A DNA stretch of 21,817 nucleotides from an uncultured archaeon (GTDB taxonomy: Archaea > Asgardarchaeota > Lokiarchaeia > Sigyniarchaeales > SOKP01), in assembly GCA_964493715.1 (NCBI GenBank), contig CAZBPC010000056.1, forward strand, positions 1 to 21,817, read 5' to 3'. Below the pieces are notes generated by a model. It made no database searches. It was not told the origin of the DNA and was given only the letters and a program-made list of their open reading frames with translations. Positions 5,402 to 15,705 of the stretch are shown here, in pieces. How positions within the stretch are numbered: the stretch's first letter is position 1; each line of letters begins with the position of its first letter. Position numbers and translations under genes: made by a program.

Positions 5402-5857
5402 CTAACCATTTCTTCTTTTTATAAGATTCTGAAGGCAGCGTTGTAGATAATCTTCAAATTGGTTTATTTCTTCTTTACTAAAGCCGTCATAAAATAAGTT
5501 CGTCATGATTCTTGATACATCAATATAGTCCTGCTTCAATTTTAACGCTTTTTCTGTTAAAATTATGAAAGTCTCCCGTTTATCATTCTTAGATTGAATT
5601 TTTTTGACAATATCGATTTTTTCAAGATTATCCAGATGCGAACTAAGTGTAGATTTAGTTAATTGAGTCTTTTCAACGAGTTCATGAATAGGAATATTAT
5701 CTTTTTGTAGTAATAGAAATATCACTCGTCCTTGGGATGGATTAAATAAATCTAAATTATATTCTCGTAAAATCTTTGTAAAAATTCTTTGAGAAAGTTG
5801 ATGGATTTTAGAAATTAAAAATCCTCCCGCACTAAATTCCTTTGATTTTTTACTCAT
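5402..5857 (-). CDS. MarR family transcriptional regulator
   Basis: 151 aa: SQGRVIFLL...ELVEKTQLTKSTLSSHLDNLEK...DKRETFIILTEKA, a MarR wHTH. Confidence 0.92.
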   Translation of the reverse strand: MSKKSKEFSAGGFLISKIHQLSQRIFTKILREYNLDLFNPSQGRVIFLLLQKDNIPIHELVEKTQLTKSTLSSHLDNLEKIDIVKKIQSKNDKRETFIILTEKALKLKQDYIDVSRIMTNLFYDGFSKEEINQFEDYLQRCLQNLIKRRNG

Positions 5858-5889
5858 AATCTAGCATCTATTTTAAAAACAATGATATT

Positions 5890-6360
5890 TTATTCTATTC
5901 CCGGCTCAAATTCGACTTTTTGTAATTTATAATAGAATTGTGCTATTAGTGGTTTTAATCGAAGTAGGGTATAATCTGGATCACTTAATCCTTTAAGATA
6001 ATATTTTGTCCACCAGTCTAACCATAAATTTTTCTTTATGTTCATATCATCAATAATTTCTACTTTTCCTCCAAACATGACTCCCTTGAAATCATTAGGT
6101 TCGCAGTAATAAACGGAAATTTTAGGATTCTTCATAACATGATCAGTTTTAGATGATGATGTATTTGTTGAAATATATATATCGAATTCATTGTCCAATC
6201 CATTGAAGAACTCTATAAATTCAGGAAATTGCTCCTTATTCCTTAAATTAAACATTGCTCTTGTTATGGGGTATCCTTTTGAGTCAATAGTTGTTAAATA
6301 TACCGCTTTGGAGGAATCCATCAATTCCAAACTCAATTTTTTCACTTCTTCTAATTCCAT
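5890..6360 (-). CDS. Pyridoxamine 5'-phosphate oxidase-like FMN-binding protein (general stress protein 26 type)
   Basis: LTTIDSKGYPITRAM...STNTSSSK...NPKISVYY...DPDYTLLRL. Start taken at ATG 6360 (MELEE), which follows GAAGTGA; the ORF track starts at 6393. Confidence 0.88.
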   Translation of the reverse strand: MELEEVKKLSLELMDSSKAVYLTTIDSKGYPITRAMFNLRNKEQFPEFIEFFNGLDNEFDIYISTNTSSSKTDHVMKNPKISVYYCEPNDFKGVMFGGKVEIIDDMNIKKNLWLDWWTKYYLKGLSDPDYTLLRLKPLIAQFYYKLQKVEFEPGIE

Positions 6361-6394
6361 ATTTTTCACTTCTTCATGTATTTTAATATTCATA

Positions 6395-6733
6395 TTAAAA
6401 ATTTTTTCGAATTTCGTCTAACATTTCTTTAGTTGATGGTACTTTATCAAAAGTCATCTTTAAATTATCGCAGAAATAATCTTCACAAAAAGCACAATTT
6501 TGGAATCCTTTCTCTTGACAACAACTTTTTATGGGGCATTCTTTGCACCAGCTAAAAATTCTTCCCTCCCTATTACAACCATCGCAATATATATCCTCAG
6601 GTTTAAACGATAATGATTCAGTTGACCATTCTTTTGCAACCTTTTCAATTTCCTTAAAATCTTCCTTTTGAGTAGCTAAATATGCAGGACACTCTGAACA
6701 ATCAAGTCCACAATATGCAATTATTTTACCCAT
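6395..6733 (-). CDS. DUF3795 Cys-rich (putative metal/Fe-S) protein
   Basis: AYCGLDCSECPAY...CDGC...C.IK.CC..KG..NCA.C..Y.C pattern. Start at ATG 6733 after the SD GAGGT. Confidence 0.85.
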   Translation of the reverse strand: MGKIIAYCGLDCSECPAYLATQKEDFKEIEKVAKEWSTESLSFKPEDIYCDGCNREGRIFSWCKECPIKSCCQEKGFQNCAFCEDYFCDNLKMTFDKVPSTKEMLDEIRKNF

Positions 6734-6784
6734 ATTTAATACCTCATTTAATTTTTTCATTTTATTTCATATTTTAACTAAATC

Positions 6785-7532: not shown

Positions 7533-9788
7533 TTACTTTATTGGTCGACTATTTGCTTGGAAAATTGGACCGATAAATTGCGAATATAATTTCGCATATG
7601 AAGCTTGGTTTGAAACCACGCTTATCATTTCAGATTCATTATCTGTAAATGGACCAATAATCACTTCTTCGGCATCTCGGGTGACCGCATAGAAATCGCC
7701 TTGAGTATTAAGCTGTCGGAATTGAATATTACCTAAACTCATCATCTTACGAATAATATCTCCATATTGGTCCATTGGAAAATGACTTGTAAGCATGAAT
7801 CGTGCCGCTTTCTTTTGAAAAGCAAATTCACTGACAACTTGTAAAACTTCTGGGATAACGACTGGTGTCACGATAATGACAGAAGATTTTGTCCTATAAA
7901 TCGCGTCTTTAATGGCAGATACCATCGCATCCCTACCAATTACTTGCCAGGTGGTAATTTCAGAAATCTCAGGGAGCGCACTCGAAGCGTTAAAAATATC
8001 CTTCAATTTATCTTCATTTTGTTCTGACAATTCCGTTCCATCATCAATTGAATTCATGAATTGGAGCGTGAAATCAGCAATTGCATCCTTGATATTTTGT
8101 GCGGTGTCCTTAGTAGTGTTTGATAAGCTATTTTGCAGTGTTTTAGCATTTTCTTCATATTTGGATTTATGATCACTGAGCATTTCACTTAATGTTCTAT
8201 CTAAATCCGCAGATTCATCTCCCCATAGGCTGATTTCAGCGGTAATTTTATCAGAGATATCACGTTTTCCTACAATAAATTTATCATCCGTATCCCTGAT
8301 CCAATCTTCTTTAATCTTCTTTATGTCGGTATCAAATTCTGTATAATGTTTAAGAGAATCATCCTTATGTCGAGTGATAGCTTCATTATATTGCCTATGA
8401 TGTTGCTGAATAGAGCTTTCAAGTGAATCTTTCAACTTTATGGTAGTACTGGAACAATCTTTTATTCCGTTTTGTAGTGTAGTATCAACTTCACCGGCCA
8501 TGTCTGTTGCTAATGTTTCTAACTGTACGTTAATAGTTTCTTGAGCTTTATGATCTAACTCTGTTGTCTCAGTTCCGAGATTTTCATTTTCTCTGGAAAT
8601 AATGGTAGTTACATCCTCTTTAATATCATCAGTAGTTTTGCGCGTATCTTTTATATAATCTTCAGTTGTTTTAATGAAATCATCTTTCATGGGCTCTGTA
8701 AAGGTGAGAATGTTTTGAATTGTAGTTTCATGACGTGCTTTAAATTTTTTCTTCTTACCCATCCAGAAAAAGCCCTTCTTCGCCATTTCTCCTGAAAAAT
8801 CAGTAAATCGATTCGCATGTTCGAGGAGGTTGTCAATTAAGGTTAGTGTCATGCTCTTGAAATCATTTGATTGATCATTTAAGATTCGATGCCGTTCATC
8901 TACTGTTGCTTTTAAGTTAGTTTGAAGAGTCTCAGTTGTATTTTTCACGTGAGTAGCGTGTTCATTTAATAGATTAGATATCCTTTGTTTCAGATCAGTA
9001 ACTATCTTATCCATGCGTTCTAAATATTTCTCGAGAATTTGTTCCATGCGAGGTTTCAAGTCATTTGCAATAGTTTTATGACGATCCACATGTTCATCAA
9101 GATCTTGCTTTAACTCTTTTTCGATATTTTCAACTCGGCTTGAAAAATCAGATAATAAATCAGCAACTAATTTAGTTAAGTTCTCTTTTGTTGTATTGAC
9201 TTGAGATTCGTTTTCTTTTATCTTTGTGGCACTAATGTTTTTTAAATCTGAGTTTAGCACGTTTAAAATTGAATGAGTGTTTTCTTCAAGGGTTTTTGAA
9301 GTGTCAGTAAAACGATTTCTAGCTAAATTTATTTTTTCTGCTTTATAATTGCTTTTAGTATCAGAATCTTCAAAGAATTTTTTCAATTGTCGATCTACAG
9401 CAGTCACTACTTCAGTTATGCTCTTATCTTGGATTGATTCTAGTTTTTCAAACCTACTTGCTTGATCAGCTAAAATCCTATCCTTGATTTGAGCAATTTC
9501 ATTTCTAAAAATCTCGGATTCTGATGTAAATAATTCAAAAAATGGTTCAAGTGGAATGTATCTATCTACAATTCCAGGCACATGCTTTAAAAAACCTTTT
9601 TCAACTAGCTGATTTGTTTCTTCAACGACCTTTTCGTAAGTTAAATCCTGATAATCATCGGTTAATGTGAGATATACTTCCGAAGAAGTTGCTCTTGGCA
9701 CTCTTAAATAACCAAGATATATAAGGATTTGTTCTTCTGTAAAACCATAACGAGTAAAAACTTCCTTAGTGAATTCCTTTAAACTCAT
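7533..9788 (-). CDS. TrmB-like protein: N-terminal wHTH, about 530-aa coiled coil, C-terminal TrmB effector/PLD-like domain
   Basis: N-terminal YGFTEEQILIYLGYL...L.EKGF....RYIPLEP (TrmB wHTH pattern). C-terminal TWQVIGRDAM...I.RTKSSVII.TP...RDAEEVIIG (TrmB C-domain pattern). The central region is helical and low in Gly/Pro. Confidence 0.8.
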   Translation of the reverse strand: MSLKEFTKEVFTRYGFTEEQILIYLGYLRVPRATSSEVYLTLTDDYQDLTYEKVVEETNQLVEKGFLKHVPGIVDRYIPLEPFFELFTSESEIFRNEIAQIKDRILADQASRFEKLESIQDKSITEVVTAVDRQLKKFFEDSDTKSNYKAEKINLARNRFTDTSKTLEENTHSILNVLNSDLKNISATKIKENESQVNTTKENLTKLVADLLSDFSSRVENIEKELKQDLDEHVDRHKTIANDLKPRMEQILEKYLERMDKIVTDLKQRISNLLNEHATHVKNTTETLQTNLKATVDERHRILNDQSNDFKSMTLTLIDNLLEHANRFTDFSGEMAKKGFFWMGKKKKFKARHETTIQNILTFTEPMKDDFIKTTEDYIKDTRKTTDDIKEDVTTIISRENENLGTETTELDHKAQETINVQLETLATDMAGEVDTTLQNGIKDCSSTTIKLKDSLESSIQQHHRQYNEAITRHKDDSLKHYTEFDTDIKKIKEDWIRDTDDKFIVGKRDISDKITAEISLWGDESADLDRTLSEMLSDHKSKYEENAKTLQNSLSNTTKDTAQNIKDAIADFTLQFMNSIDDGTELSEQNEDKLKDIFNASSALPEISEITTWQVIGRDAMVSAIKDAIYRTKSSVIIVTPVVIPEVLQVVSEFAFQKKAARFMLTSHFPMDQYGDIIRKMMSLGNIQFRQLNTQGDFYAVTRDAEEVIIGPFTDNESEMISVVSNQASYAKLYSQFIGPIFQANSRPIK

Positions 9789-10049
9789 GAGTTTTTCTCC
9801 AATGTTCTATTTACATTGAAATAAAATTCAAATAAATTTATGAATAATATGAATTCCTTTTCAATATCTTAAAATATTATAATCTTTAATTATTTATCAA
9901 AATTATTATATTAAAACTTAAGGATTAGGAAGACCGCTTTTTAATGTGGAACCTTTAAGAAATGAATCTATCACATTTATCAAATCTAATAGGGATACTC
10001 TAAATTGTAAACGTGAAGATATGATTTGATTGTATAATTAAGTCTAATG

Positions 10050-10080
10050 GGAATAATTATTCCTCAATCCTTTTTATATA
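10050..10080 (+). promoter_or_regulatory. Perfect 14-bp palindrome upstream of a TATA box (activator-type architecture)
   Basis: GGAATAATTATTCC (10050-10063), followed by TTTTTATATA (10071-10080). The ATG is at 10125. Confidence 0.65.
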
Positions 10081-10124
10081 GAATATACTTCTTTCTTACA
10101 GATAATAAAATTTGTTGAAAAAAA

Positions 10125-10805
10125 ATGAAAAAAACACATAAGATTTTAATCAGTATATTTAGTCTCATGGTACTTTTTTCCCTATTGAACGTAAGTTCGG
10201 TTGCAGCTCAAGGAACAACTCCTGAAGAAATTAATCAAGACTGGTACCAAACGAGATTGAACTCCTCTACACAATACAATTTTAGATTCAGATTACAAAC
10301 CCAACTAAGAATTATGGCGAATGTTAATATGGATCTACGTATTGATTGTGAACCAATGAAGATTGGGGTAAAAGATTTCACTCTTGAAGTTACAACATCC
10401 GGAGATTTAACGATGAATATGACATGCACGGAAGAACAAAAAGAACTTGGATTATTAAATGGAAACACTTACCAAATGAGGAATCAAAATCGATTTCGAT
10501 ATGATGAAGGATTTTGCGTTAGAATTCAAACAAATGCTACAAATCAAATACAAGCAAAGTTAATGATTCAAGCAACAAATCAAAATCAAGTAGGTACGTG
10601 GGCATACTACGATGAAGCAACCGGAGAATGGGTATCAGTCCCAACTACGGTTGAGAACGGATATTTAGTAGCCAACGTTGATCATTTCTCATATTGGACA
10701 ATTTTACTTCCAGATTTTACACTCGCGATAATTATTAGTATTGGTGTAGGAGCAAGTGCCTTGGTTGCAGTATTAGCAATTTATTATTGGAAGAAGAAGA
10801 GATGA
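10125..10805 (+). CDS. Secreted, C-terminally membrane-anchored beta-rich surface protein
   Basis: Signal peptide ending VAA/Q, N-glycosylation sequons (NSS, NMT, NAT), YYDEATGEW...VDHFSYW motif, then a TM helix and KKKR tail. Confidence 0.85.
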   Translation: MKKTHKILISIFSLMVLFSLLNVSSVAAQGTTPEEINQDWYQTRLNSSTQYNFRFRLQTQLRIMANVNMDLRIDCEPMKIGVKDFTLEVTTSGDLTMNMTCTEEQKELGLLNGNTYQMRNQNRFRYDEGFCVRIQTNATNQIQAKLMIQATNQNQVGTWAYYDEATGEWVSVPTTVENGYLVANVDHFSYWTILLPDFTLAIIISIGVGASALVAVLAIYYWKKKR

Positions 10806-10896
10806 GACAATAGTATTTAATTAATATCCTTTTTTTTTATCTTTTAATTATCAAAATTATATAAAATATTGTTGAGGTTGGCTAAAAATTCGTAAA

Positions 10897-12144
10897 ATGG
10901 TGAAAAGGGAAAATAAAACAATTATTTTTCTTGCATCATTTATAGTATTATTAAGTTTAAATCTGTACCTCAACACGGTTTTAGCTCGGGATGAATACAT
11001 TCCTGGATTCTCTACAAACGATTCCATAAATGCAGATGAAACAGTTAACTATCATTTCTCTAACAATATACTTTTAAGTATAAGTAGCAATGTCTCAATA
11101 GAACTTAGTGCTAGCTACGAAAATCCTATTCTAAATAAACAAATTCACTTTTTCATCAATAATAGCAATCCATTATCATTAAATATCACTTCAAAAGAAA
11201 ATCTTGGAAATTTTGGTGTTTCTAAAGCCCCACAAGATCCAAATAAAGGGGGTCTTCAGTATCAAAATAAATATAATTGCATAATGTTGATTATAGCTAA
11301 TGTTACCATAGAACATCTGACAATTCGGAGCTTTAAAAGTACTCAATATGGATTTAACTTAAATTCACAATATTCAATCGGAGTTTATGAACCATCTAGT
11401 GAATCTTGGGAAATATTTGAAACACAAGAACAACTTAATACATCTAATTCAGAATTGTATTTAGAGACATCATTATCTTTACTGAATGCTAGTACAGAAT
11501 ATTATATTACTTATTTTGAAGTAAATAACATAGTTGATAATTGGATTTGGGTTTCATTTTTTGTAATTCTCTTTTGTGTTATTGTTGCTGCTGCAATAAT
11601 GATCTCAAAAAGTGATTACATAAATTATTTAAAAATGCGAACTGTTCCAATTGAGAAGGGAGTGCATCGTCTTACTTTGGAAGATGTATTAGAAAATAAA
11701 AACCGTGATAAAATAATTGATTTAGTATTAAATGAGCCTGGAATTCATTTCAATGAGCTATTAAGAAGAACAGAAATTGCTGCAGGAAATTTAGTCTGGC
11801 ATTTAGATATTCTTGAAACCTATAAGATAATTGGAAAAAAGCGAGTGGGTAAATTTATTGCCTATTTTCCATATTATGATAAAAATCCTATTTCAAATAT
11901 AGATTTAAAATTGAGTAAAAGCAAGCTAACCCTAGAAATTTTAGAGATGATTGAAAATGAACCGGGGTTATGGAATAATATCATTACAAAGAAACTAAAA
12001 GTGGATCATAAAACAATTCATTATCATATCAACAAATTAAGAGATTTGAATCTCATACGTTTTCAAAAGGATGGACGGAAAAAAAAATTCTTCCCGAATT
12101 TAGAATCAGAATATTTTGAAAATAAAAAAGAAGAAGATAATTAG
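10897..12144 (+). CDS. Single-pass membrane transcription factor: signal peptide, ectodomain, TM, two winged-HTH domains
   Basis: Signal peptide ending VLA/R, many sequons (NDS, NVS, NNS, NIT, NVT, NTS, NAS), TM WIWVSFFVILFCVIVAAAIMI. Tandem wHTH repeats: NRDKIIDLVLNEPGIHFNEL...WHLDIL and ILEMIENEPGL...HYHINKL. Confidence 0.88.
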   Translation: MVKRENKTIIFLASFIVLLSLNLYLNTVLARDEYIPGFSTNDSINADETVNYHFSNNILLSISSNVSIELSASYENPILNKQIHFFINNSNPLSLNITSKENLGNFGVSKAPQDPNKGGLQYQNKYNCIMLIIANVTIEHLTIRSFKSTQYGFNLNSQYSIGVYEPSSESWEIFETQEQLNTSNSELYLETSLSLLNASTEYYITYFEVNNIVDNWIWVSFFVILFCVIVAAAIMISKSDYINYLKMRTVPIEKGVHRLTLEDVLENKNRDKIIDLVLNEPGIHFNELLRRTEIAAGNLVWHLDILETYKIIGKKRVGKFIAYFPYYDKNPISNIDLKLSKSKLTLEILEMIENEPGLWNNIITKKLKVDHKTIHYHINKLRDLNLIRFQKDGRKKKFFPNLESEYFENKKEEDN

Positions 12145-12300: not shown

Positions 12301-12804
12301 ATGATTGAACCAGAAAAACTTTTAGAGTTTATGAAGAACCGTAGGAGCATTCGTTCGTTTCAAAATACCCCGATTGCTGAAGATGCGATTGAAATGCTAT
12401 TAGAAGCAGCAAGATGGACTCCAAGCGCTTCAAATAGGCAACCTTGGGAATTTATCGTTATTAAAGATAAGGAGCTTTTGGAAAATGTAGCAAGTAATGC
12501 AATGTTCGGAAAGTTCGTGAAAAGAGCACCTTTGGCAATTGCAATAGTTGGAAAAAAAAGGGTGAGTCCTAATTGGTATGTTATAGATACATCCTTGGTT
12601 TCTATGAATATGATGCTTATGGCTTGGTCTTTGGGGATCGGAACTTGTTGGATTGGCTCCATGGATCGGGAAAAGGCGAAGGAGATACTCAAATTAAAGG
12701 AGGATGACTATTTGCTTACTATCCTACCATTTGGTTATGTAAAAGGAGCAATCCCAAAACCTACTTTACGTAAATCAATGGAAGAAATTAAAAAAGAGAT
12801 GTGA
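12301..12804 (+). CDS. Nitroreductase family protein
   Basis: RRSIRSF, PSASNRQPWEF and GIGTCWIG motifs. Confidence 0.95.
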   Translation: MIEPEKLLEFMKNRRSIRSFQNTPIAEDAIEMLLEAARWTPSASNRQPWEFIVIKDKELLENVASNAMFGKFVKRAPLAIAIVGKKRVSPNWYVIDTSLVSMNMMLMAWSLGIGTCWIGSMDREKAKEILKLKEDDYLLTILPFGYVKGAIPKPTLRKSMEEIKKEM

Positions 12805-12806
12805 AT

Positions 12807-13973
12807 TTATAGTTCAATAATTAACTCATCTAACTTTTCTGGTGCATTAGATAATTTAATGTATCCGTCTTCTGTAATCAAGACTGTATCAGAATGTCGA
12901 AATCCTCCTAATCTGGGGATATAAATTCCGGGTTCAACACTTATTAACATGTTAGGTTCTAATTGACGATCATAACCTTCTGCTAGAAATGGTGCTTCAT
13001 GCCCAGTAATCCCTAATCCATGCCCTGTCCGATGGATGATGTAATCCCCATATCCATTATTCGTAATGAATTTCCTAACTTTTTTATCAATTTCCCCCAT
13101 GTTCTCTCCAGGCTTTAATAGAGTATATGCTAAATCTCTTGCTTGATACATGATTTCAAACGGTTTTTTAGCTCTTTGTGGTATTTCACCTAAGAAGAAA
13201 GTTCGTTCTATTTCAACTCCATACCCATCTACTTGCGCGTAAACTATTGAAACATGTGGTCCTCCGTTTTCCATTTCAGCAAAAATTTTTGGTATTATAT
13301 GCGGATCATGAGAAAAAGAGGGTGGCCAAACAGCAGCGGTGGTCTTACATACCATAAAATTAGCTTCGGGAATATCTTGGATGATTTTAGACGTCATGAG
13401 TCCTGTTACTTTTTGATATAATGCAAACTCTAGTACACCAGGTCGACACATTTTAAGAACTTCCTTATGACCTTTATTGATTACCTTGCAAGCGTGTACT
13501 GAACGTCCAACTTCATAGTCAGTTTTTATAATCCGAACCTCATCAATAATATCCGTGATGATCTTAATTCCTTGAGTTTTTTCTGCAATTCCCATAGGCA
13601 TTGCAGACTCTATGCCCACTGTTTTATTATTTTTAATAAGTTTTTGGTATTGATCAAACCAATTTTCTCCTTTTGGAGCAGGAAATTCATAATAGCTGAA
13701 AAACTCCAGATCACATAATGCTCTTGTTTCAACGTGACTTTTTTCTAAAAGTGGTACTACCATTTTTGGGGGACCTTCTTTCTCAATTACTAAGATAAAG
13801 GGTCGTTCATGAACATTATTAGCAAAATTCGTTAAATAGTAAATGTTTACTGGGTTAAATGAAATATAATAATCTAAATTTTCACGATGCATTAAGGAAC
13901 GCACTTTTTCAAGACGATTATTTAACTCCTCTTTCGATGGAGGTACTTTTATTGATTTTAATTTTGAAACCAT
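12807..13973 (-). CDS. M24 (Xaa-Pro peptidase/creatinase) family protein
   Basis: Creatinase-N-like N-terminus (NIYYLTNF) and pita-bread domain motifs RIIKT..E, HRTGHGLG..HEAP and VEPGIY. Confidence 0.9.
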   Translation of the reverse strand: MVSKLKSIKVPPSKEELNNRLEKVRSLMHRENLDYYISFNPVNIYYLTNFANNVHERPFILVIEKEGPPKMVVPLLEKSHVETRALCDLEFFSYYEFPAPKGENWFDQYQKLIKNNKTVGIESAMPMGIAEKTQGIKIITDIIDEVRIIKTDYEVGRSVHACKVINKGHKEVLKMCRPGVLEFALYQKVTGLMTSKIIQDIPEANFMVCKTTAAVWPPSFSHDPHIIPKIFAEMENGGPHVSIVYAQVDGYGVEIERTFFLGEIPQRAKKPFEIMYQARDLAYTLLKPGENMGEIDKKVRKFITNNGYGDYIIHRTGHGLGITGHEAPFLAEGYDRQLEPNMLISVEPGIYIPRLGGFRHSDTVLITEDGYIKLSNAPEKLDELIIEL

Positions 13974-14112
13974 TTTTTTTCACCTAATTATCTTCTAAAT
14001 CAATATTTAACTTAATTTTGTTGGGCTAATAATTTTTCACATTATCTCTTCTCACTAAACTTAATAAAAAGGAAAATTATTTTACTAGTAAAACCTAAAA
14101 TTGAAAATATAA

Positions 14113-15705
14113 ATGACTACCGGATATTTTGGATTAGTACTGCATGGTCACATGCCTTGGTGTAAGAAGAGTGGGGTATGGCCTGCAGGAGAACAGTGGT
14201 ATACTGAAGCCGCTCTGGAAACATATATACCTCTGTTAAATGTTCTAAGGGAGCTTAAAGAGAAAGGAGTAAAGACTGCTATAACAATCAATATCACCCC
14301 AATATTGGCAGAAATGATGGCTGACAACTATATGAAAGAACGTTTTATTCATTATGTTGAAGACTTAATAAAAAGAGCTAAATCTGACATTCAGAAATAT
14401 ACTAATCATCCTTCAAGAAAGAAAATCGCCGAATTCCATTTACGTAATTTAAAAAATAACCTTTCTGCTTTTTATCAAAATTATTATAGCGACCTTTTAG
14501 GTACCTTTAAGTGGCTTCAAGATGAGAAGATGATAGAATTAATAACTTGTGCAGCAACTCATGGTTTTTTACCGCTTTTTGAGCGAGATTCTACCATTTT
14601 TTCTCAGATACAACTTGCAGTCGAAACTTACAAAAAATACTTTAAGAAAGAACCAAAAGGATTTTGGCTTCCCGAATGTGCTTATCGCCCCAGGAAGAAA
14701 ATTGGAAATGCTATACGGGAAAGTATTGATTATTGGCTTCATAACTCTGGAATAGAATACTTTTTTGTTGATTCTCATGGGATTTTAACCGCTGAGATGA
14801 TTGAGAGTAAAAACCAAATAGGTTTGAACACTAATATTGGATATAATTTAGAAACTGGAGTTTCAGTTTTGGGGAGGAATAAAAACACGAGCAGACAAGT
14901 ATGGGATGCACAAATAGGTTATCCTGGTAATGAATATTATAGGGAATTTCATAAAAAAGATCATGATTCTGGATTACAGTATTGGAGGATTACAGATAAA
15001 TCAATTGGTAACGAGCAGAAGGAATTATATGATATAGAAAAAGCTCAAGATAGGATTAAATTGGATGCAAATTATTTTATTTCTTCTCTTTTAAAAGAAT
15101 TAACATCATTCTCAAGTAAATATAATGAGAAAGGCATTATTGTATCCCCTTATGATTTTGAACTGTTTGGTCATTGGTGGATGGAGGGAATTCCATGGCT
15201 TAAAAGAGTCTTTGAATTAATCCATGGAGAAAAAAATATCAAAATGATCACATTTTCAGCATATCTTTCCAAAAATAAAGATAAGTTTTCTATTATTAAG
15301 ATGAAAGAAAGTAGTTGGGGTGAAGGTGGTCATTTCCAAGTTTGGAAAAACCCAGAACATGGTTGGATATGGCCTTATATTAATAGCTCTGCAATAGAAT
15401 TTGAAAATATTTTAGAGAGATATCCCAATCCTAATACATCACAACAACGTATCTTAAGACAGATTGCTAGAGAACTTTTATTGATGGAGGGAAGTGATTG
15501 GTCTTTTCTATTATACACTAAACAAGCTAAAGAATATGCAAATCAACGGTTTCATCACCATCACCAAAGATTTAATAAATTAATCTGGATTGCCAAGGAT
15601 TTTAATGATAAAAATAGGTTATCTTTAAAAGAGTTGGAAGAAATTGAATCAATCGACTCTTGTTTCCAAAATATCAATTTAGATTATTTTCGTAAAAAAA
15701 ATTAA
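14113..15705 (+). CDS. GH57 1,4-alpha-glucan branching enzyme (DUF1957)
   Basis: LHGHMP, ETYIPL, ATHGFLP, GFWLPEC (nucleophile), YDFELFGHWW.EG (acid/base), SSWGEGG and SDW motifs. Confidence 0.93.
   Translation: MTTGYFGLVLHGHMPWCKKSGVWPAGEQWYTEAALETYIPLLNVLRELKEKGVKTAITINITPILAEMMADNYMKERFIHYVEDLIKRAKSDIQKYTNHPSRKKIAEFHLRNLKNNLSAFYQNYYSDLLGTFKWLQDEKMIELITCAATHGFLPLFERDSTIFSQIQLAVETYKKYFKKEPKGFWLPECAYRPRKKIGNAIRESIDYWLHNSGIEYFFVDSHGILTAEMIESKNQIGLNTNIGYNLETGVSVLGRNKNTSRQVWDAQIGYPGNEYYREFHKKDHDSGLQYWRITDKSIGNEQKELYDIEKAQDRIKLDANYFISSLLKELTSFSSKYNEKGIIVSPYDFELFGHWWMEGIPWLKRVFELIHGEKNIKMITFSAYLSKNKDKFSIIKMKESSWGEGGHFQVWKNPEHGWIWPYINSSAIEFENILERYPNPNTSQQRILRQIARELLLMEGSDWSFLLYTKQAKEYANQRFHHHHQRFNKLIWIAKDFNDKNRLSLKELEEIESIDSCFQNINLDYFRKKN

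Follow-up and report, generated by a model that had tools for sequence, protein, structure and literature searches.

A stretch of 21,817 nucleotides from an uncultured lokiarchaeial archaeon (GenBank assembly GCA_964493715.1, contig CAZBPC010000056.1, positions 1 to 21,817; henceforth the window), which is AT-rich throughout with a G+C content of about 31%, raises the question of whether two adjacent genes in these archaea couple the state of a surface protein to transcription. The genes concerned, here termed G1 and G2, are co-oriented open reading frames (ORFs) of the + strand at 10125-10805 (226 aa) and 10897-12144 (415 aa). A spacer of 91 bp lies between them, and they occupy the region where an earlier note, made from the sequence alone, had placed a candidate surface protein and its paralogous receptor-regulator. 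The answer to which we tentatively incline, while holding it somewhat short of probable, is that G2 is a transmembrane one-component regulator which controls, and probably senses, a surface protein of a self-cleaving type encoded by G1, so that the two would constitute a lokiarchaeial signalling module of two genes. The coordinates of the sub-features of both genes given below were derived by hand from residue numbers.

The outer portions of G1 and G2 are paralogous. The four short stretches of similarity picked out by eye in the earlier note lie within the two proteins and occupy the same columns in a profile alignment, and its proposal of a duplicated ectodomain pair is borne out. A direct BLASTP comparison recovers 26% identity over 142 aa (E 4e-4). 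For the comparison of profiles we assembled an alignment of 58 relatives of G1 (A3) and one of 56 relatives of G2 (A2) from database matches and from ORFs read at 20 loci in more distant genomes; two sequences in which a G1 part is fused to part of ribosomal protein S2 or of a methyltransferase (P0134 and P0163), which are probably artefacts of assembly or gene calling, were removed before A3 was built. When A3 is compared with A2, hhalign pairs residues 32-186 of G1 with residues 31-194 of G2 over 153 columns (probability 99.7, E 1.2e-25), which confines the similarity to the ectodomains, and the match persists once signal peptides and transmembrane (TM) helices are trimmed (E 1.5e-19). The controls were clean, with E 0.0073 for the reversed G2 alignment and E 0.5-0.83 for five column shuffles. 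A hidden Markov model (HMM) of the G1 family run over its own genome likewise matches the frame of G2 (E 2.3e-12), and the adjoining G2 is matched in this way in many genomes. In a tree of 60 ectodomains all those of G2 fall on one side of a branch with a support of 96 in the SH-like approximate likelihood ratio test (SH-aLRT), suggesting that they stem from a single old duplication which predates the diversification of the order.

The phyletic pattern of the pair was traced in a set of 60 related genomes that includes its own, which is 100% complete by marker genes. G1 was found in 49 of these, namely its own genome and, by family, 29/35 in f1, 14/14 in f2, 1/1 in f3 and 4/4 in f4, and it was not found in the five genomes of f5-f7. 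Gene positions compared by hand, together with the reading of ORFs at distant loci, show that in 46 of the 49 genomes, which span four families of the order, G2 comes right after G1 and is co-oriented with it; the synteny for which the earlier note had asked is thus real. In two of the other three genomes (G023 and G033) the contig ends right after G1, and the third (G054) has a tandem-fused G1 without an adjacent G2. The conserved neighbourhood consists of the G1-G2 pair only, and no protease gene is conserved beside it at the loci compared. Two fused forms (P0136 and P0179) unite a G1-type, motif-bearing ectodomain with a TM helix and two winged helices in a single protein. P0136 nests inside the genus-level G1 clade of the tree and is not seen as a single frame in the 60 related genomes, and this absence suggests that it is either a rare recombinant or an assembly chimera; the ectodomain of P0179 found only itself in a word-based search. 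A search with the G1 alignment among 8000 candidates returned no fused form of greater length at E ≤ 0.001, which is weak evidence.

G1 is a type-I membrane protein. It comprises a signal peptide (residues ~1-28, 10125-10208), a β-sandwich that resembles MAIN and GAIN domains (residues ~29-197, 10209-10715), a TM helix (residues ~198-222, 10716-10790), and a basic tail, KKKR (residues 223-226), followed by the stop codon. The AlphaFold2 (AF2) model, with a mean predicted local distance difference test score (pLDDT) of 88.1, is an all-β sandwich whose ectodomain blocks reach 90-98 over residues 31-200, and it ends in a hydrophobic helix at residues 201-225 accompanied by the four basic residues, as the earlier note had read the C-terminus. 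All 20 G1 sequences checked begin with a hydrophobic signal and end in a TM helix with a basic tail. The domain matches no Pfam or NCBIfam family above cut-off, its profile retrieves a single irrelevant match from the PDB sequences (E 0.71), and a search of the ESM Atlas with G1 returns clusters from Promethearchaeota and Bathyarchaeota only. An exhaustive HMMER search yields 95 representatives of the family at E ≤ 0.001, mostly of 205-260 aa; the relatives are built of the domain alone, in one, two or three copies, each tandem copy having its own His-Phe-Ser turn. The C-terminal third of the domain also has weaker matches in surface proteins of greater size from archaea and bacteria, one of them a bacterial protein with an SLH anchor. 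Examples of the tandem arrangement are seen at L052 (G054:C1:3656536-3657708) and in P0123 and P0124; if every tandem copy cuts, such a protein would be a chain of pieces held together non-covalently.

We also considered whether G1 might be a substrate of the PGF-CTERM/archaeosortase system and rejected this candidate: no NCBIfam sorting-signal model matched its C-terminus, and the archaeosortase family PF09721 was not found in its own genome, the control with M. jannaschii being positive. Given that no archaeosortase was found in that genome, the C-terminus of G1 is best read as a plain TM anchor. As a separate observation, some orthologues of G1 from another family of the order carry, before the C-terminal helix and basic tail, a short Pro-Gly-Tyr/Asp-Gly-Tyr-like motif which recalls PGF-CTERM sorting signals; the G1 of the window is without it.

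The best-conserved motif of the G1 family is His-Phe-Ser, which in the window is formed by His187-Phe188-Ser189 (codons at 10683-10691 of the + strand) and constitutes a turn of the HX(S/T) type between the last two strands of the sandwich. DSSP assigns strands to residues 180-185 and 190-196 and the turn to residues 186-189, just before the TM helix. The motif is present in 54 of the 58 aligned G1 sequences, the remainder having HYS (two), HFT (one) or, in one case, none of these. A count over the representative matches gives 56 of 59 domain instances with the motif. In the paralogous domain of G2, on the other hand, an H-x-S/T/C triplet in the last two strands occurs in 0 of 56 sequences, and the G2 of the window has at the position of the turn a five-residue loop that carries an N-glycosylation sequon.

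MAIN (Microbial Autoproteolysis INducing) domains are described in a bioRxiv preprint of 2026 by Brogan and Rudner (doi 10.64898/2026.05.12.724683) as sandwiches of GAIN_B-like fold that immediately precede the surface anchor in proteins of bacteria and archaea, and that cut themselves at an HX(S/T) turn with the fragments remaining together; for YfkN of B. subtilis it reports a cut between Phe and Ser identified by Edman degradation and an inactive Ser-to-Ala mutant. PIDD and Nup98 are likewise reported to self-cleave at His-Phe|Ser (PMC3210808), and the ZU5, GPS and Nup98 domains have been grouped in one superfamily which also occurs on bacterial surface proteins (PMC3482391). Judging from its motif, G1 probably cleaves itself between Phe188 and Ser189. 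On the whole, the motif, its position and the architecture of G1 are those of a MAIN domain, the links by fold and by sequence are weak, and the assignment is suggestive.

With the MAIN proteins of that preprint, such as YfkN and the IgA Fc receptor of S. agalactiae, G1 shares the secreted sandwich with an HX(S/T) turn right before the anchor. Those proteins average 158 kDa, however, whereas the 226 aa of G1 make up the bare domain and leave no room for a passenger of adhesive or enzymatic function; its anchor is a TM helix in place of sortase or SLH, and it is paired with a regulator that bears a dead copy of the same domain (doi 10.64898/2026.05.12.724683). With GAIN, ZU5, FIIND and Nup98 (Zhang et al. 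2012, PMC3482391; D'Osualdo et al. 2011, PMC3210808), the likeness lies in a cleavage-type motif within a tight turn that ends a membrane-near sandwich; that superfamily, too, has uncleavable members and couples an outer cleaved domain to a membrane signalling part. Unlike the GAIN domains of adhesion G-protein-coupled receptors (GPCRs), G1 and G2 each have one TM helix, without a seven-TM part, a helical GAIN_A subdomain or a death-fold partner, the output is a DNA-binding domain, and the cleavable-type and signalling copies are on separate polypeptides. Within the library searched, no paper combines 'Asgard' and 'GAIN domain'.

G2, on the basis of its predicted features, is a transmembrane one-component regulator of type-I topology. 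Both G1 and G2 begin with a basic and then hydrophobic signal-like segment, which in G2 takes up residues ~1-30 (10897-10986); it is followed by the motif-less paralogue of the G1 sandwich (residues ~31-215, 10987-11541), a TM and juxtamembrane segment which AF2 renders as one long helix (residues 216-247, with the TM portion at ~216-237, ~11542-11607), and two winged helices (residues 261-325, 11677-11871, and residues 334-400, 11896-12096). The winged helices had been seen in the earlier note and are confirmed by matches above cut-off to PF24266 (58.6 bits against a cut-off of 31, residues 268-325) and HTH_24 (33.1 bits against 21.9, residues 343-388), by the AF2 model (mean pLDDT 83.1), which shows both after the single long helix, and by Foldseek matches of ArsR/SmtB type with a root mean square deviation (rmsd) of 1.1-1.9 A over 66-68 columns. 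The stretch of roughly 30 residues that follows the TM helix shows very strong conservation. Database relatives of G2 number 508; the best 120 of these are at least 57% identical over at least 90% of the length, and within the same 120 the proteins 57-95% identical to G2 are named as winged-helix regulators of Promethearchaeota or Lokiarchaeota, or as hypothetical.

The placement of the winged helices in the cytoplasm, as the earlier note had it, is supported by two signals. Membrane proteins are oriented by the positive-inside rule, and the net charge of the 15 residues on each side of the TM helix of G2 averages -2.07 before and +2.43 after it, rising in 54 of 56 sequences; it follows that the sandwich lies outside and the winged helices inside. 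N-glycosylation sequons number 2.93 per 100 aa in the N-terminal part against 0.09 in the C-terminal part, and are denser in the former in 56 of 56 sequences. We also observed that the TM helix and the two winged helices (G2 ~207-405) recur on frames of ~200 to 850 aa in many related genomes, which suggests that membrane regulators of this kind form a family in the order and differ from one another in their outer domains.

How new is this arrangement? The earlier note had likened it to the logic of ToxR and ToxS with a eukaryote-like topology and had recognised no characterised system. The latter wording of the topology is overstated, and the likeness to ToxR/ToxS is a loose one of a membrane regulator with a small single-pass partner encoded next door. 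The topology is opposite and the DNA-binding fold different: G2 has its sensor first and outside and its winged helices last and inside, and these are of ArsR/MarR rather than OmpR types. G1, moreover, is paralogous to the sensor domain, and its gene lies upstream; no homology to ToxR/ToxS is known, and ToxS is not known to be a paralogue of the outer domain of ToxR. The transmembrane transcription regulators (TTRs), among them ToxR, CadC and the archaeal ArnR, are the appropriate class, as G2 satisfies the published definition of a DNA-binding domain plus at least one TM helix in one protein (Demey et al. 2023, PMC10269533). It departs from the TTRs of that survey in having a signal peptide, an N-out/C-in orientation, tandem winged helices of ArsR/MarR and PF24266 type rather than OmpR type, and a MAIN-like sandwich as sensor; the class includes 1,384 archaeal proteins, and the word Asgard is absent from the paper (PMC10269533). 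A literature search on lokiarchaeal membrane winged-helix regulators showed nothing relevant among the 12 best-ranked matches. The parts of the system are recognisable, since MAIN domains have been described and membrane-bound regulators, archaeal ones included, are a known class: both the MAIN-type domain and the transmembrane regulator are of kinds already known.

The DNA upstream of G1 suggests what the regulator may act on. A promoter box at 10049-10080 (+ strand) has a G-run and a perfect palindrome of 14 bp (10050-10063); its conserved core lies within 10057-10070 and reads TTCCTCAA, and a T/A run resembling a TATA box follows at 10071-10080, some 45 bp ahead of the start codon of G1. 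Archaeal activators usually bind directly upstream of the B recognition element (BRE) and TATA. The box is kept in 30/30 genus-level upstream regions, in which the flanking DNA is unalignable. Its own genome has one exact copy, and matches with up to two mismatches number 17, as against 25 for a backwards control. In five other genomes the copies with zero or one mismatch are essentially those in the promoter of G1 and in the promoter of an unlinked G1 paralogue, the exceptions being one extra one-mismatch site in G013 and a G1-promoter copy at two mismatches in G022. Unlinked G1 paralogues are preceded by the box in 8/8 cases by eye and in 7/8 by nhmmer (E ≤ 0.011), and another copy stands before the tandem G1 found without a neighbouring G2 in G054. 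The genus-level HMM of the box finds nothing significant in the remaining families of the order (E 0.4-8). A variant of the same layout is seen there by eye, and a pattern for it matches 13/18 upstream regions, the pattern having been written afterwards from the same sequences, with a background of 23 matches in the 183,228 nt of all loci, both strands included; the presence of the box in these families is accordingly suggestive.

The unlinked paralogue of G1 (L081-L088, e.g. G029:C28 and G013:C31) is a protein of 280-310 aa with a long Cys-x-Cys repeat insert in a loop of the sandwich, which from its sequence looks like a metal-binding or disulfide-rich module; it is found in many genomes of the genus and is absent from the own genome of the window. 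A second paralogue of G2 was also noticed at L054 (G032:C62) and at G003:C100. This is a protein of 414 aa, 42-45% identical to G2 and with matches to PF24266 and HTH_24, and it follows a secreted or anchored protein of 188 aa that lacks both a Pfam match and His-Phe-Ser, the gene for which lies behind a related box and a T-run. The two may form a parallel module with a different partner.

The association extends beyond the order. Across the phylum the G1 HMM detects the domain in 53 out of 199 genomes, those outside the order belonging to f12 (1/43), f14 (1/1), f19 (3/7), f20 (3/4), f24 (1/6) and f27 (6/10). In f27, represented by one genus, a membrane protein of 448-506 aa is encoded directly upstream of, and co-oriented with, a tandem G1-type protein of ~360 aa at 6/6 loci; the gene order is the opposite of that of G1-G2, with the regulator first. 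The tandem protein has two G1-type domains, each with an H-[FYL]-[ST] turn, and the cytoplasmic part of the regulator matches residues 238-415 of G2 (tblastn E 1e-10 to 1e-16) and has ArsR-type Pfam matches. Ahead of the tandem gene, 6/6 loci have a box that shares the core seen upstream of G1, with one exact copy per genome in 5/5. The outer domain of the f27 regulator is unrelated to the G1 type (hhalign probability <1%). A link that persists with another gene order and another sensor supports the connection of regulator and target, and weakens the case for an essential contact between paralogous domains. At the loci of f14, f19 and f20 which encode G1-type repeat proteins, no G2-type regulator is present within 5-7 kb (0/6).

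Taking the computed paralogy, architecture, topology signals, motif distribution and synteny, and the conservation and uniqueness of the box, as the base, we infer a course of events in which the self-cleavage, the DNA binding, the direction of regulation (activation), the contact between ectodomains and the nature of the signal are all conditional. G1 would be exported and glycosylated, would fold into a GAIN_B/MAIN-like sandwich, and would cut its own chain at Phe188|Ser189, whereupon a fragment of ~160 aa would stay non-covalently on the last strand, which runs into the TM anchor. G2 would present its uncuttable copy of the sandwich outside, cross the membrane with one long helix, and hold two winged helices of ArsR/MarR type inside, with which it would bind the palindrome box upstream of the TATA of G1 and of the G1 paralogues and activate them. 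The input would be the state of the outer fragment of G1 on the surface, that is, whether it is present, bound or pulled off; the paralogous outer domain of G2 would read this state, and the cell would adjust or replace G1. A comparable flow from a self-cleaving outer domain to transcription is provided by RsgI/SigI with the SEAL domain, which differs, in the account given in the preprint, in its SEA-like fold, its use of an anti-sigma factor and its need for intramembrane proteolysis (doi 10.64898/2026.05.12.724683).

Several observations weigh against this reading, in the first place against the nature of the G1 domain. In the list of PDB matches obtained by Foldseek, using a model that contained the signal and TM helices, GAIN (9mqr, 4dlo, 8oek), ZU5 (3ud2, 3ud1) and FIIND (7crw) structures occupy ranks 2-5, 18 and 21, but no match reaches E ≤ 0.001, those to GAIN and ZU5 having E 0.067-0.21 and TM-scores of 0.22-0.27. 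Of 20 ectodomains trimmed of their anchors, one matches the YfkN-type model NF006937 (E 0.021, over positions 1213-1332 of the 1411 in the model), as do three among 60 members of the G1 family taken at full length (best E 4.3e-4), a weak link; NF038253 matches 2 of the 60 (best E 6.2e-5), a count that takes in the whole length of these proteins. G1 also has no passenger domain, unlike the described MAIN proteins. As regards cleavage, the box-sharing G1 paralogue has replaced the His of the turn in 8/8 loci read, the database representative P0127 keeping His-Phe-Ser, so that cleavage is not needed for expression linked to the box; likewise, the unrelated outer domain in f27 means that a paralogous contact is not needed for the linkage of the genes. 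On the regulatory side, such scaffolds as RPC34, TFIIIC, ScpB and ESCRT-II are among the structures that the tandem winged helices match best, and the box could belong to another factor. Finally, the spacer between G1 and G2 contains a run of nine T (10830-10838, + strand) and a TATA-like stretch (near 10857-10867, + strand), and a T-run of at least seven is present in 27/27 orthologous spacers of 65-100 bp. We take this run to be an archaeal oligo-T terminator or attenuator, from the general manner of archaeal termination; on that assumption G2 probably has its own promoter or is transcribed more weakly, and the conservation of the run speaks against a single tight operon of G1 and G2.

The strongest of the alternatives, unlikely in our estimation yet to be taken seriously, is that G2 is an independent regulator which senses an outside ligand with its own sandwich, G1 being only its target gene or its product, and the outer domains never touching. 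It accommodates the f27 regulators, in which linkage and box persist although the outer domain is unrelated, the presence of the box at unlinked G1 paralogues, and the recurrence of the same TM and winged-helix module on many other N-terminal regions, but it leaves unexplained why a motif-less copy of precisely the G1 domain has been kept as the sensor in four families since the duplication, and why G1-type ectodomains are occasionally fused to the output module.

Less probable still is a constitutive hetero-complex of the ToxR/ToxS kind, in which G1 would be an uncleaved co-receptor or anti-activator, as the earlier note had it, and the His-Phe-Ser turn would be purely structural. The paralogy and the tight synteny would be expected of such a complex, and since the motif Phe of self-cleaving ZU5-type domains is a buried structural anchor in the account of PMC3210808, conservation by itself is no proof of catalysis. 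Against this, the His and the Ser are conserved to the same degree as the Phe (54/58), and the only substitutions, HYS and HFT, keep a nucleophile; the motif of G1 stands at the same place as in proteins shown to cleave; and G2, which must stay whole, is without it in 56/56 sequences.

We regard it as quite improbable that G2 is no transcription factor at all, its tandem winged helices serving as a protein scaffold and the pair as a structural link from the surface to the cytoplasm. The top Foldseek matches of the tandem, 8iue_P (E 5.4e-6) followed by TFIIIC, ScpB and 3cuq, would fit such a role, but the Pfam families matched above cut-off are DNA-binding ones of ArsR/MarR type, the single domains match ArsR/SmtB repressors at an rmsd of 1.1-1.9 A, and the module is accompanied by a unique box that has dyad symmetry. 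A mechanism of regulated proteolysis like that of Notch or RsgI, by which G2 would be cut in or near the membrane after a signal and release its winged helices, could draw on the strong conservation after its TM helix and on the triggering of RsgI intramembrane proteolysis by self-cleaving SEAL domains cited in the preprint (doi 10.64898/2026.05.12.724683), but is very improbable in view of a G2 without a self-cleavage motif, a pair without a conserved protease gene, and the ability of prokaryotic membrane-bound regulators to reach DNA without release (PMC10269533).

Among the neighbouring genes, that divergent from G1 (7533-9788, - strand) encodes a largely coiled-coil protein of 751 aa whose sole Pfam match is a sub-threshold one to Apolipoprotein, and the first 70 residues of which look winged-helix-like by eye. 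It adjoins G1 in 25/29 loci of the genus and in 0/12 distant loci, and its homologues are present in 55 of the 60 related genomes, including the five of f5-f7 in which G1 was not found. The protein was considered as a factor that binds the box and judged unlikely to be one, given that its adjacency is confined to the genus, that it lies elsewhere in closed genomes, and that it occurs without G1 and G2. The other neighbours, at 5402-6760 (- strand) and 12301-15705, are ordinary genes for a MarR-type regulator, a PNPOx-like protein, a DUF3795 protein, a nitroreductase, an M24 peptidase and a GH57 branching-enzyme-like protein.

The significance of the pair lies in the connection of a MAIN-like domain to a membrane regulator, which is tied in three ways, through gene neighbourhood, through an inactivated copy of the domain as the sensor, and through a dedicated promoter box, and which is seen in two distant Asgard families. 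The preprint that describes MAIN domains states that they have so far been tied to no signalling (doi 10.64898/2026.05.12.724683). The boldest form of the proposal, which we consider unlikely though by no means negligible, is that Asgard archaea signal across the membrane by a GAIN-like self-cleaving domain: shear, contact, a ligand or some other event at the surface would pull off or occupy the G1 fragment, and the paralogous domain of G2 would read the change and switch the dedicated box. If this is true, the module would be a prokaryotic counterpart of the mechanosensing of adhesion-GPCR or Notch type, split over two proteins, with the rare natural fusions as its one-protein form, and it would give microbial MAIN domains their first role in signalling, in those archaea which stand closest to the eukaryotes. 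With a predicted regulon of only one or two promoters in each genome, and with parts of small size, the question of whether a self-cleaving surface domain feeds into archaeal gene control, as GAIN domains feed into signalling in animals, is directly testable.

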